A stretch of DNA of 64,000 nt from Kiritimatiellia bacterium (GTDB lineage: Bacteria; Verrucomicrobiota; Kiritimatiellia; CAIVKH01). Position numbers and translations under genes: made by a program. Shown here piece after piece: positions 54,218 to 57,568 of this stretch. The stretch covers positions 93,327 to 157,326 of the forward strand of contig DAOLDD010000004.1 in assembly GCA_035327585.1 (NCBI GenBank), given 5' to 3'. The notes beneath the pieces were generated by a model, which saw nothing but the letters and a program-made list of their open reading frames with translations, did no database searches and had not been told where the DNA came from. Position 1 is the stretch's first letter, and each line of letters opens with the position of its first letter.

Positions 54218-55095
54218 AGGAACAAGCCATCGCCCTAGCGCGCGGGGCCACGGACCCCGGGCAGGCGCTCAACCTGCTGCGCGAATACCTCCAGGCGTTC
54301 GTGCTGCGTTCATTGCATGAGTCCGAGGCTTTCCGCCCGCTCGCCTTTGTCGGCGGCACGTCGCTCCGTTTCCTGCATAACCTGCCGCGTTTCTCCGAGG
54401 ACCTCGATTTCTCCCTGATCTCCGCGGAGGACTACGAGGGCAAGGCGTGGATGGAAAAGGTGAAGCGTGACCTCACCCTCGCGGGCTTTGTCCCGGATGT
54501 GACCTGGAGCGACCGGAAGACGGTGCACACGGGTTGGGTTCGGGTGGCGGGTGTCCTGCGGGACGCGGGGCTTTCCCCCATGGCTGACGAGAAACTGGCC
54601 ATCAAGATGGGGATCGACACCCGGCCCCCGGCCGGAGCCCGTTGTGAGCGCCGCTTGGTGACCCGTCATCTGACGTTCTTCCTTCAGCACCATGACCTGC
54701 CAACCCTGCTCGCAGGTAAACTGTACGCCGCGATCACGCGCAAGTACGCAAAGGGCCGCGACTGGTACGACTTGCTCTGGTACCTGTCGCATCGTCCGCC
54801 GGTGGCGCCGAATCTAGACCTGCTGCAGCATGCGCTCGACCGGTCGCAGGGTGTCGGCCAGATGGACGCGCGTCGGTGGCCGACCCTGGCGCGCGAGCGG
54901 CTCCTGGCGCTGGACATGCGCGCCATGGCGGACGAGGTCAGCCCGTTCCTCGAACGCAAACGCGATATCCAGTTTGTAAACACGGAAACCTTGGACCAAC
55001 TGCTGAAGGACGCCGAACGGCTGGAGGCGACGGATCACCACGGGGAGAAAAACCATGAGCAAGCTGGACCAGACAACCCACAAACGATTTATTGA
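54214..55095 (+). CDS. abiEii: AbiEii-family nucleotidyltransferase toxin (DUF1814)
   Basis: The start is Met at 54214 (MKEQAIALARG...). The hG[GS] nucleotidyltransferase motif FVGGTSLRFLHNLPRFSEDLDFSL (GS..D.D) is typical of DUF1814/AbiEii. Confidence 0.65.
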   Translation: MKEQAIALARGATDPGQALNLLREYLQAFVLRSLHESEAFRPLAFVGGTSLRFLHNLPRFSEDLDFSLISAEDYEGKAWMEKVKRDLTLAGFVPDVTWSDRKTVHTGWVRVAGVLRDAGLSPMADEKLAIKMGIDTRPPAGARCERRLVTRHLTFFLQHHDLPTLLAGKLYAAITRKYAKGRDWYDLLWYLSHRPPVAPNLDLLQHALDRSQGVGQMDARRWPTLARERLLALDMRAMADEVSPFLERKRDIQFVNTETLDQLLKDAERLEATDHHGEKNHEQAGPDNPQTIY

Positions 55096-57568
55096 TGAGT
55101 ACACGGTCGAATATGCGATCTATAAACGCTACGCGGCGGTGTTAAAGGCGTGTCTGGAGACTGCGTGTTCCGTGGCGCTGCCGGAGGCGCTGGTGCAGGC
55201 GCGGCCGAAGTCGATCGCCAGCTTCGCGGAGAAGTGCGTCCGCAAGCAGGACAAGTACAAGGACCCGGTGCGGGACATGACGGACCTGTGCGGCGCGCGC
55301 GTGATCGTGCAGACGCTGAAGCAGGTGAATGCGGTGCGCCAGTTCATCGAGGCGAATTTCAAGATCGAGGAGCGCGACGACAAGACGGAGTCGCTGGGCG
55401 CGACGGAATTCGGCTACCGCGACATGCACTACATCGTGCGCATTCGGACGGGCGAGCCGCCGCCGGGTTTCTCCGACGAGGACGTAGCCGCGATCGGCTG
55501 CCGCCGCGCGGAGGTGCAGGTGCGCACGTGGGTGCAGCACGCGTGGGCCGACACGCTGCATGACCGGATGTATAAGACGAAGCTGAAATATCCGGCCGAA
55601 TTCAAGCGCATCGGTGCGTTGCTGGCGGCCATCATGGAGGACGGAGATCGTTCGTTCGACCGGCTGGCCGAAGACATCGACGGCATGCTCGCCAACTATT
55701 CCGCGTTCGCCGCCCCGGACGATGTCCGGAAGGAAATTGAGGTGCAGCGACTGATCCTCGCGAATGCGCCGGCCCACAAGCGGCCCGGTATCGCGCTTTC
55801 CCTCGCGCGCCTGCTCGTCGCGACCGGCGACTACGCCGGCGCGGTGGCGGAATTGGAACCGCATGCCGCCACTGCGGGTTCGTTGCAGGATGAAATCGAG
55901 CTGGAACTGGGCCACGCGCGCTGTAGGAACCATGCCGCAGCCCCGCGTTCCGACGATTTTCGGAGGGGCCAGGCGGACCTGCAGGGCGTGGTGGACCGTC
56001 TGGCAAAACCGACGCGTTCTCATGTGCCGAACCTGCGCAAACAACGAAGCCTGCATGCTCGCGCGCTGGCCCGGCTGGCCTGGTCGCACAGCCTCCAGCC
56101 CGGCGGCGCGCCCACGGCGCGCAAGCTCTATCAGGCCGCCCTTGCGCTGGAACCGGCGAATCCATATTTCCTGGCCGAGGTCGTGGGGCACGAAATCCAT
56201 TGGCAGGGCGGGCCCGAGCAGGCCGCGTTGCTGGCGCCGCAGATACGCTCGGCGATCGGGACCTGTCGCGAACACCTGGAGAACGGCACTGAGATGCCCT
56301 ATGCCTGCTTCACCGCCGGGCGTTTGTGCCTGTTGCTGGGCGAACCGTACGACGCGCTGTGCCTGTATGCGCGCGGAATCCGCCACTTCCTCTCCGGCGC
56401 ATCCGCGATGCTGGCTGATGTGCTGGCCGCCGAGGAGCAATGGCTGCTGCTCGTTTGCGGCGCCCATGAACCGGCGGAAGGCTATCGTTGGTGCTTGGAT
56501 CTGTTGTTGCTGGCTCGGCGCGTCGGTTCAGCGGAGAACCCCGCGGGGGCATCGCCGGTGATTATCGTCGCGGGCGGAGCCGGTACGTTGGGCGGCGCCG
56601 AATCCGCGCTCGTCCAGAACCTGCTGTCCGGGGCCTTGCCCGGCTTGAATGGCCTTGTGATTTCCGGCGGCACCCGGGCGGGCACGCCCGGCGCGGTCGG
56701 CGCGGCGGCGGAAGCATCGGACCAACGGGGAGGGCGGACGTTCCGAACGCGAGGGTATCTGCCCGCGCTGCTGTCCGAACATGAGCCGCGCGACGAACGC
56801 TATGACGAATTGATCACGTGTGGCGAACACGGGTTCACTCCAGAACAGCCGTTGCGGTACTGGCGCGATCTGTTCGATGCGGGGACATCGCCCGCTTCGG
56901 TGCGGCTCTTCGGTTTCGGCGGCGGTCGGATCAGCGGGTGCGAGTACGCCGTCGCACTGGCGCTGGGTTCCACCGTGGGCCTCGTCGCTGGCTCGCGGGG
57001 TCGTGCCGACAGAATGCTTGCGGACCCGGCCTGGCGCGGCGAGGCGAACCTCATTCCCTTGCCCTGCGACCCTGCGACGGTACGCGCGTTTTTGCAGCCG
57101 CACCGTTCGGACATCCCGGAGGAAGCGATCGAGGGCATGGCCCGCAACTTCCACGAGACGTATGTTGCAGGAAGCGCGAACCGGTTGCCGGACAATATGA
57201 AGCCGTGGCCCAGGCTGCCCGAAACCTACAAAACCGCGAATCGCGAACAGGCGCGATGTGTCATCCGCATCCTGGAAGCCTGTGGATTCGTCGTGCGCCC
57301 GGCCGGTGCGAATCCGTCCGCCATCAACTTCACGGAGGAGGAGGTCGAGCGCATGGCCGAACTCGAGCATGGCCGCTGGAATGTCGAGCGATTGCGCGAC
57401 GGCTGGCGGCCCGGTCCGCGGGACGACGCGAACAAGCGGCATCCCTGCATCGTTCCGTGGTCAGATCGCAAAACGCTCACCGAAGCGATCAAAGACTACG
57501 ATCGCAACGCGGTCCGCCAGTTCCCCGCCCAACTAGCCCGCGTGGGGCTTGATGTGGTACGGCCCTGA
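55055..57568 (+). CDS. Multidomain protein: N-terminal RelA/SpoT-type (RSH) nucleotide pyrophosphokinase domain, TPR-like helical region, LOG/SLOG-like Rossmann domain, C-terminal RyR domain
   Basis: 837 aa. It overlaps the abiEii 3' end by 41 nt. The synthetase motifs DMTDLCGARVIV, GYRDMHYIV and EVQVRTWVQHAWADTLHDRMYK match the RelA/SpoT synthetase G/RxKxxxSxxxK...D..G.R, GY...H and E.Q.RT..QH.W.E motifs. The LOG-like block VIIVAGGAGTLGGAESAL...GLVISGGTRAGTPGAVGAAA matches the GGGxxGLMG-type pattern. The C-terminal RyR segment MAELEHGRWNVERLRDGWRPGPRDDANKRHPCIVPWSDRKTLTEAIKDYDRNAVRQ is a near-textbook match. Confidence 0.7.
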   Translation: MSKLDQTTHKRFIDEYTVEYAIYKRYAAVLKACLETACSVALPEALVQARPKSIASFAEKCVRKQDKYKDPVRDMTDLCGARVIVQTLKQVNAVRQFIEANFKIEERDDKTESLGATEFGYRDMHYIVRIRTGEPPPGFSDEDVAAIGCRRAEVQVRTWVQHAWADTLHDRMYKTKLKYPAEFKRIGALLAAIMEDGDRSFDRLAEDIDGMLANYSAFAAPDDVRKEIEVQRLILANAPAHKRPGIALSLARLLVATGDYAGAVAELEPHAATAGSLQDEIELELGHARCRNHAAAPRSDDFRRGQADLQGVVDRLAKPTRSHVPNLRKQRSLHARALARLAWSHSLQPGGAPTARKLYQAALALEPANPYFLAEVVGHEIHWQGGPEQAALLAPQIRSAIGTCREHLENGTEMPYACFTAGRLCLLLGEPYDALCLYARGIRHFLSGASAMLADVLAAEEQWLLLVCGAHEPAEGYRWCLDLLLLARRVGSAENPAGASPVIIVAGGAGTLGGAESALVQNLLSGALPGLNGLVISGGTRAGTPGAVGAAAEASDQRGGRTFRTRGYLPALLSEHEPRDERYDELITCGEHGFTPEQPLRYWRDLFDAGTSPASVRLFGFGGGRISGCEYAVALALGSTVGLVAGSRGRADRMLADPAWRGEANLIPLPCDPATVRAFLQPHRSDIPEEAIEGMARNFHETYVAGSANRLPDNMKPWPRLPETYKTANREQARCVIRILEACGFVVRPAGANPSAINFTEEEVERMAELEHGRWNVERLRDGWRPGPRDDANKRHPCIVPWSDRKTLTEAIKDYDRNAVRQFPAQLARVGLDVVRP

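Follow-up and report, generated by a model that had tools for sequence, protein, structure and literature searches.

The window analysed here is a 64,000-nucleotide (nt) stretch of contig DAOLDD010000004.1 from a Kiritimatiellia bacterium, numbered from its first letter. Its subject is the gene at 55055..57568, which encodes an 837-residue protein beginning with a RelA_SpoT alarmone synthetase domain and ending in a tandem RyR module. A GGAG Shine-Dalgarno sequence was found about 8 nt 5' of the ATG, and a database protein of 100% identity (P0001) is named 'RyR domain-containing protein [Kiritimatiellia bacterium]'. An earlier note on this DNA had proposed a fusion of RelA/SpoT, TPR, LOG-like and RyR parts; the open reading frame and all of the motifs that it quoted were present in the translation, and the architecture was borne out by Pfam, an AlphaFold2 model and Foldseek. 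The protein was confirmed to consist of four domains: a RelQ/RelP-like synthetase, a TPR-like array, an LSDAT/TRPM-type SLOG domain and a RyR module, the last made up of two repeats (aa ~686-757 and 758-837) and not of one as had been supposed. The domains were laid out as follows (aa, amino acids; HMM, hidden Markov model).

55055..57568, + strand: whole gene, 837 aa, ATG start; RelA_SpoT, TPR-like array, SLOG (LSDAT type) and tandem RyR (Repeat12-like)
55055..55699, + strand: RelA_SpoT domain, small-alarmone-synthetase-like; aa 1-215, Pfam core aa 50-176
55712..56524, + strand: all-helical TPR-like array; aa ~220-490
56540..57109, + strand: SLOG domain, LSDAT/TRPM type; aa 496-685, with glycine-rich loops at G507, G538-G539, G543 and G620-G624, and E630
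57110..57325, + strand: RyR repeat 1, degenerate; aa 686-757, recognised by the RyR HMM and Foldseek, with H700, W718, Q732 and A733 invariant in 40 homologues
57326..57565, + strand: RyR repeat 2, canonical; aa 758-837, recognised by Pfam RyR, with ligand-site residues H772, W775, H796 and D816

Invariance was assessed in a family alignment of 40 full-length homologues. The AlphaFold2 model was built from the family alignment and had a mean pLDDT of 87.8 and a pTM of 0.83.

Pfam RelA_SpoT (PF04607) matched aa 50-176 with E=6.9e-17 (62.2 bits against a gathering score of 27), and a RelA_SpoT match was obtained in all 40 aligned family members. Alignment with RelQ/RelP assigned R50/K52/S56/K60, D77/G80/R82, G120-Y121-R122-H125, E153/Q155/R157 and W164/H169/Y173/K174 to the ATP-binding and catalytic motifs, and these residues were invariant across the homologues. 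Loss of the conserved acidic residues had been named beforehand as a finding that would overturn the alarmone-synthetase claim; the alignment was run, D77 and E153 were conserved along with the other catalytic residues, and the claim stands. From these residues the domain looks catalytically competent. Small alarmone synthetases listed with the AlphaFold2 model included YjbM (17.9), RelP (17.3) and YwaC (16.5), and the JGI annotation of homologues is plain ppGpp synthetase. The label 'toxSAS-like' was kept only in part: acting as a signalling protein or effector of conflict systems would agree with the gene neighbourhood described below, but in a membership test the synthetase fell into none of the toxSAS subfamilies (CapRel, FaRel, PhRel and others).

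The SLOG assignment was weak for the window sequence alone and secure at family level. LSDAT_prok (PF18171) scored 15.7 bits on the window protein, under its gathering score of 25.4, and matched at E<1e-3 in 35 of the 40 aligned homologues (best 4e-10), many of them above the gathering score. A Rossmann-like SLOG/LOG fold with glycine-rich nucleotide loops was present in aa 496-685. Residues 622-630 read GGGRISGCE, with E630 invariant, and are like the LOG phosphoribohydrolase motif PGGxGTxxE, not identical to it; LOG-fold proteins of the PpnN/YgdH type (3bq9, 9us2) were among the structural matches. The SLOG domain is of the TRPM2/ThsA-related kind, and modules of the SLOG and RyR kinds are known from other proteins to bind ADPR-type ligands.

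The RyR assignment was significant for the window protein itself. Pfam RyR (PF02026) matched aa 761-833 with E=2e-14 (54 bits against a gathering score of 27.4), and an RyR HMM built from the loci fetched for this study covered aa 686-837. Profile matches in the PDB were the repeats of RyR1-3 and the bacterial RyR domain structures 3nrt and 6uag. In Foldseek the C-terminal ~170 residues (~174 columns) were superposed onto the whole two-repeat Repeat12 module of the Bt-hRyR_12 chimera (6uhi) with a TM-score of 0.60, and matches were also obtained to human RyR3 R12 (848-1055) bound to ATP or to ADP and dantrolene.

RyR-fold proteins of phages have been characterised in two 2026 preprints, and the earlier statement that RyR domains in bacteria have no established function has been overtaken by this work. 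Mycobacteriophage DyoEdafos gp78 (RyDEP) is a glycosidase with the RyR Repeat12 fold that cleaves the 2' and 3' forms of cyclic ADP-ribose (2'/3'cADPR); further phage homologues are nanomolar sponges of 2'/3'cADPR (PMC13232231). The ligand-binding and catalytic residues of RyDEP, H75, W78, H100 and D117, are also conserved in the non-catalytic phage sponges and in animal RyRs (PMC13232231). A second RyR-fold sponge, RyR Tad, binds 3'cADPR (dissociation constant 43 nM), 2'cADPR and cADPR through equivalent residues (10.64898/2026.06.04.730250). RyDEP (L052:4664-5080) was aligned using MAFFT with all 60 RyR modules of the fetched loci. H75, W78, H100 and D117 fell on H772, W775, H796 and D816 of the window protein; these columns were conserved in 58, 57, 49 and 58 of the 60 modules, respectively, and were invariant in the 40 aligned family members. 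The full set was found in repeat 2 only. The pocket that holds cADPR-type ligands in the phage proteins and ATP or ADP in human RyR3 is therefore predicted from these residues to be intact in repeat 2. When phage genomes were searched by tblastn with this module as query, only two weak matches were obtained, and RyDEP was not among them.

The fusion had been described as unusual, a term that its distribution does not bear out. A word-indexed search returned 533 relatives, of which the top 120 were essentially full-length, 47-100% identical and carried an identical Pfam set. In an exhaustive search of representatives clustered at 50% identity, 10,758 passed E<1e-3 and 712 passed E<1e-30. Over 150 representatives were close to full length, and the family is thus large and conserved. 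Fifty homologous loci were fetched, and gene context was counted over 51 loci. The loci came mainly from bacteria of the PVC group (Kiritimatiellia, Lentisphaerae, Verrucomicrobia and Planctomycetes); a small number belonged to Acidobacteria, Deltaproteobacteria, Accumulibacter, KSB1 and Acidimicrobiia. The contig of one member (L038, CAVTMS010000009.1; 288 kb) is labelled as a metagenome-assembled genome of Candidatus Bathyarchaeota, which may reflect horizontal transfer into an archaeon or mis-binning. A scan of viral contigs for relatives of the family found none.

Literature searches found no description of the RelA-SLOG-RyR architecture. The 2015 work of Burroughs et al. in NAR is said to have defined SLOG/LSDAT and may, reportedly, list the architecture as a computational prediction. 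RyR was not mentioned in Kaur et al. 2020 or in the jumbo-phage paper, and neither an RyR nor a RelA effector appeared among Thoeris types I-IX in the available text of a systematic survey of December 2025 (10.64898/2025.12.03.692087). The strings 'ryr' found in the available supplements of the same survey were letters within protein sequences and were discarded. PADLOC did not recognise 55055..57568 as a system and reported only a match of its RelA domain to the candidate PDC-S33. The family is real, widespread and unstudied, and may be a new type of output device of TIR-based signalling.

The gene lies in a cluster with two STAND proteins, one on each side, and an AbiE pair; the cluster is flanked by housekeeping genes, with FtsW/RodA at one end and an aminotransferase at the opposite end.

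47423..48403, + strand: TPR protein, 326 aa; ends 9 nt before the DUF4062 gene and is syntenic in L045
48413..53389, + strand: DUF4062 (TIR-like NADase)-NACHT-HTH_NWD1-TPR STAND protein, 1658 aa; Pfam DUF4062, NACHT, AAA_16 and TPR; candidate sensor and NAD+-cleaving enzyme
53576..55095, + strand: AbiEi/AbiEii pair; PADLOC AbiEi E=8e-49, AbiEii E=7e-62
57589..60345, + strand: TIR-NB-ARC-TPR STAND protein, 918 aa; Pfam TIR_2 E=2e-18, NB-ARC E=7e-26; candidate signal-producing sensor

The TIR-NB-ARC-TPR gene starts 20 nt 3' of 55055..57568 on the same strand, and a like order with an 18-nt gap was found in L045, a syntenic locus with 85% identity. The orthologue in L045 has the DUF4062-STAND gene as its immediate upstream neighbour. 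The L001 orthologue (65% identity) stands between two DUF4062-STAND genes, the first of which runs 4 nt into its start. DUF4062 has been described in a preprint as a TIR-like NADase that makes ADP-ribose (ADPR) and is typically fused to NACHT (10.64898/2026.05.01.722283). The domain order DUF4062-NACHT-HTH_NWD1-TPR is that of eukaryotic NWD1/TEP1/NPHP3-type proteins.

Homology between the window and L045 breaks only at 53383-55044, where ~1661 nt in the window stand against ~254 nt in L045. The AbiEii frame runs 41 nt into the start of 55055..57568, and homology to L045 resumes 11 nt before that start codon. As L045 has the same gene order without AbiE, AbiE was taken to be an indel and not part of the conserved module, and it was ruled out as a cognate toxin-antitoxin partner. 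No cognate antitoxin gene adjoins 55055..57568 in the window, AbiEi and AbiEii being a pair of their own. A promoter and terminator scan of the island gave no sigma-70-like sites, and terminator-like sites were fewer than in shuffled sequences. Elsewhere in the window, 41124..42812 (- strand) encodes a sigma-54 activator AAA+ protein with a weak C-terminal CHAD match, an unusual combination with relatives in L008, L045 and one more fetched locus.

Genes were called in all loci and searched using iterated HMMs built from Pfam-verified seeds. The caller, based on open reading frames, over-extends some starts, and apparent N-terminal extensions such as those in L014 and L030 were not counted as fusions. 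Within 10 kb of the family gene, 33 of the 51 loci carried a TIR or DUF4062 gene; where each flank extended for 8 kb or more, the figure was 15 of 18. Such a gene was the immediate same-strand neighbour in 12 loci, at a spacing of -4 to 275 nt, which in 9 of the 12 did not exceed 42 nt. The density of TIR/DUF4062 genes was 2.4 per 10 kb within 1 kb of the family gene, fell to 1.0 and then to 0.3-0.7 farther out, and was 0.1 at 8-10 kb. The first 45 kb of the window, in which 31 genes were called, contained no TIR/DUF4062 gene. All 35 neighbouring TIR domains matched Pfam TIR_2, and the single invariant column of their alignment was the glutamate at the catalytic position, which the window's TIR domain shares. 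The TIR/DUF4062 partners have in common an N-terminal NADase domain followed by varied C-termini (NB-ARC-TPR, NACHT-TPR, TPR-HEAT, TPR-FGE-sulfatase or nothing recognisable), and many of the adjoining TIR proteins are 190-400 aa long and ThsB-like.

A second recurrent neighbour was a NUDIX gene of ~140 aa (Pfam E=1e-21 to 6e-25), found in 29 of the 51 loci. It usually lies directly upstream of the family gene, often with a 4-nt overlap, and is within 2 genes in 27 loci. NUDIX domains were also fused to the family protein, N-terminally in P0194 and P0263 and C-terminally in P0181 and P0188, with two NUDIX domains in P0194; the independence of the N- and C-terminal fusions argues for a direct functional link. 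The NUDIX partner resembles nucleoside-polyphosphate hydrolases of the MutT/NudG/NudI type, not ADPR pyrophosphatases. The closest orthologues (window, L045 and L001) have no NUDIX gene, and have STAND genes on both sides.

RyR modules were also found on other putative effectors, and other RyR-module proteins co-occurred in 11 of the 50 fetched family loci. One of these proteins is encoded in the window.

37011..39596, + strand: second RyR-module protein, 861 aa; N-terminal ~430 aa without a family match, AAA ATPase at aa ~445-540, C-terminal tandem RyR

The RyR HMM matched aa 714-860 of this protein, Pfam AAA scored 22.6 bits and Pfam RyR 19 bits, the latter under the gathering score; repeat 2 of its RyR module lacks part of a loop. 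A sequence search of the PDB gave marginal AAA/torsin matches only. Relatives of this AAA-RyR protein (860-1050 aa) adjoin RelA-SLOG-RyR genes in at least 7 loci (L004, L016, L017, L026, L036, L039 and L043), and 37011..39596 is a possible sister effector. Upstream of it are genes for a HerA/DUF87-like ATPase (33906..36323) and a CvpA-like membrane protein (36272..36754).

A further family of ~600 aa (for example L033:13104-14951) combines a transmembrane (TM) segment, TrkA_N and a tandem RyR module and is channel-like. Eighty metagenomic loci (L053-L132) were seeded on this TM-TrkA_N-RyR family, of which 64 contained an identifiable TM-TrkA_N-RyR gene and no RelA gene. Of these loci without RelA, 24 had flanks of 8 kb or more, and 14 of the 24 carried a TIR/DUF4062 gene. 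Each of the 13 TIR genes directly beside the TM-TrkA_N-RyR gene was on the same strand as it, and the TIR/DUF4062 density, 1.6 per 10 kb in the nearest 1 kb, did not exceed 0.5 farther out. Another RyR protein was found within 1 kb of the TM-TrkA_N-RyR gene at 2.5 per 10 kb, and in many of the metagenomic loci an AAA-RyR relative adjoins a TM-TrkA_N-RyR gene. RelA and SLOG genes were both absent from 70 of the 80 loci; NUDIX was present in 1 of these 70 and in 4 of the other 10. Because the TM-TrkA_N-RyR loci pair with TIR and rarely with NUDIX, the TIR association follows the RyR module, and NUDIX follows the RelA/SLOG part.

We consider it a tentative reading, with a probability of roughly 0.45, that the protein is a synthetase gated by a NAD+-derived nucleotide and serves as the output device of the flanking TIR- and DUF4062-STAND sensors, to which the gene neighbourhood links it. 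The STAND proteins (48413..53389 and 57589..60345) would detect infection, oligomerise and cleave NAD+ to ADPR or to a cyclic or otherwise derivatised ADPR. The ADPR-type nucleotide would bind the RyR pocket (H772/W775/H796/D816), the LSDAT-type SLOG domain, or both. Binding of this putative ligand would lift autoinhibition of the RelQ/RelP-like synthetase, with the TPR array as a scaffold, and the synthetase would use ATP as pyrophosphate donor to make (p)ppGpp or (p)ppApp from a purine nucleotide. Growth arrest by the alarmone, or depletion of ATP, would be toxic to the cell and abort the infection, which would make the gene part of a phage defence. The MutT-like NUDIX hydrolase adjoining most family members would clear the product and so set a threshold or a reset; the window locus does without it. 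The SLOG domain might instead bind the product of the enzyme, mediate oligomerisation as in ThsA, or be enzymatic.

Several observations weigh against this coupling of synthetase to STAND sensors. Two candidate sensor domains, SLOG and RyR, stand unexplained within one protein, and the pocket of animal RyR3 takes ATP and ADP too, so the ligand need not be TIR-derived. The adjacency could reflect clustering of independent defence genes. The distance decay was controlled with regions of the same loci and not with a genome-wide background, 18 of the 51 loci had no TIR/DUF4062 gene in the available flank (many of them on truncated contigs), and no TIR fusion was found among the 9 long family members scanned. 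A direct hhalign comparison of DUF4062 with TIR gave a probability of 14.5%, and the NADase assignment rests on the preprint (10.64898/2026.05.01.722283).

The strongest of the competing explanations, though still an unlikely one, treats the protein, with or without NUDIX, as a self-sufficient toxin/antidote-like or defence unit to which the TIR- and DUF4062-STAND genes are merely island neighbours. Its TPR array or nucleotide-binding modules would respond directly to a phage cue or to a metabolic state, for instance the ATP/ADP ratio or the free ADPR left by NAD+ depletion; in a variant it would be a guard or backup of NADase defences, reading the ADPR that they release. TIR- and DUF4062-STAND proteins can indeed be complete NAD+-depleting systems (Avs/bNACHT-type defences), and it is NUDIX that forms the tightest pair with the family gene, through close linkage, overlaps and fusions at both ends. 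Fourteen loci have NUDIX and no TIR/DUF4062 gene in the available flank. The binding of ATP and ADP by animal R12 and the production of plain ADPR by DUF4062 (10.64898/2026.05.01.722283) point the same way. Against this, the density of TIR/DUF4062 genes peaks sharply beside the gene, those that adjoin it are co-directional, and the same TIR association is shown by the TM-TrkA_N-RyR architecture, which lacks both RelA and NUDIX. The window, L045 and L001 have no NUDIX yet are flanked by STAND genes on both sides, and many of the adjoining TIR proteins are short and ThsB-like, not STAND proteins. The earlier suggestion of a self-contained generate-and-sense unit goes further and makes the RelA_SpoT product the messenger for the protein's own SLOG and RyR modules and for the sister AAA-RyR and TM-TrkA_N-RyR effectors, with NUDIX degrading it. 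A MutT/NudG-type NUDIX tracks the RelA part, and other RyR-module proteins share some of the loci. PpnN is regulated by (p)ppGpp, LOG-fold proteins of the PpnN/YgdH type are among the structural matches, and the RyR pocket accepts adenine nucleotides. The self-contained part of the suggestion fared less well: TIR/DUF4062 neighbours recur and RyR modules sit on unrelated effectors with the same TIR association, so the sensor modules more probably read the neighbours' signal than their own product. As TM-TrkA_N-RyR loci mostly lack RelA and are nevertheless paired with TIR, the RyR ligand cannot generally be a RelA product, and binding of 3'-pyrophosphorylated nucleotides is not known for any RyR-fold protein. 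We regard this version as distinctly unlikely.

Two further explanations are more improbable again. A specialised stringent-response or nucleotide-homeostasis enzyme outside phage defence would suit a catalytic domain that is closest to housekeeping RelQ/RelP and the name ppGpp synthetase given to homologues by JGI; set against this, the gene shares a defence island, enclosed by housekeeping genes, with AbiE and two STAND NTPases, the neighbourhoods are dominated by TIR/DUF4062, NUDIX and RyR-module genes, and the locus is variable, with indels such as the AbiE insertion. Marginally less credible still is an RyDEP-like glycosidase activity of the RyR module, which would destroy cADPR-type signals as an off-switch or guard against autoimmunity and leave the synthetase a secondary, regulatory part. 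Self-limiting sensors exist elsewhere, as in CARF ring nucleases, and the equivalents of the RyDEP catalytic dyad, H772 and D816, are invariant. The dyad residues are also present in non-catalytic phage sponges and animal RyRs, however, and so give no sign of catalysis, and the conserved synthetase, SLOG and NUDIX would be left without a role.

The reading of a synthetase gated by a NAD+-derived nucleotide can be widened into a joint one, which we hold to be somewhat doubtful as a whole. The tandem RyR module would be the host receptor for ADPR-type signals made by TIR/DUF4062 proteins and would define a widespread, unrecognised class of TIR-signalling defence with interchangeable outputs: an alarmone synthetase with SLOG, a channel-like TM-TrkA_N protein and an AAA ATPase. 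The 837-aa protein would couple NAD+-derived signalling to (p)ppGpp or (p)ppApp, the phage sponges and glycosidases would be captured copies of the receptor, and the meeting of TRPM-type SLOG, RyR and NUDIX within a single bacterial system would mark the prokaryotic source of the ADPR/cADPR sensors of animal TRPM2 and ryanodine receptors. If true, bacterial TIR immune signalling would gain RyR Repeat12 as a sensor domain and alarmone synthesis as an output, both of them new, and two major nucleotide second-messenger systems so far studied apart would become linked. The family concerned comprises hundreds of clusters at 50% identity. That phages carry RyR-fold sponges and glycosidases would be explained by mimicry of a host receptor, and the long-unexplained bacterial RyR domain would be given a testable role. 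Such a reading would also bear on the origin of the ADPR-sensing modules of TRPM2 and on a long-standing problem of animal RyRs, namely if and by what means their Repeat12 region responds to cADPR-type ligands. A host-encoded RyR receptor coupling TIR signalling to alarmone synthesis would, if true, surprise specialists.

Among known systems, the closest catalytic domains are those of RelQ/RelP (YjbM, YwaC; PDB 5ded, 6ewz, 6fgk, 2be3, 3l9d), at an identity of only ~20%. These are single-domain proteins of ~200 aa regulated by tetramerisation, whereas the window synthetase heads an 837-aa protein with TPR, SLOG and RyR parts, and their motif GYRSxH is GYRDMH in the window protein. The toxSAS enzymes (CapRel, FaRel/FaRel2, PhRel) and Tas1 are likewise RelA_SpoT-fold enzymes in a conflict context; the NUDIX hydrolase adjoining most family members could be the counterpart of the SAH-type antitoxin of toxSAS. 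TRPM2 combines SLOG (MHR1-2) with a channel and the NUDIX domain NUDT9H. The window protein lacks a channel domain, the sister family has TM, TrkA_N and RyR, and the NUDIX partner of the family is MutT-like and not NUDT9/ADPRase-like; an evolutionary link of the family to animal TRPM2 and to the Repeat12 region of ryanodine receptors may nevertheless exist. In its presumed way of working the protein comes closest to a Thoeris-type effector such as ThsA, which joins a sensor domain to a toxic enzyme. ThsA of type I Thoeris (SIR2-SLOG) follows the same logic, in that TIR genes with a conserved catalytic glutamate adjoin an effector with a SLOG-type nucleotide sensor. The output of ThsA is a SIR2 NADase, where the window protein has an alarmone synthetase and an extra RyR sensor, and the Thoeris partner is ThsB, where the TIR partners here are often STAND NTPases or DUF4062 enzymes. 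RyDEP and RyR Tad, finally, have the fold and the four ligand-site residues in common with the window RyR module. They are small phage homodimers that destroy or sequester host signals, whereas the window module consists of two repeats fused in tandem, one of them degenerate, and is host-encoded and attached to an enzyme. A host-encoded, enzyme-fused RyR module suggests the receptor side of the signalling that the phage RyR proteins counter.

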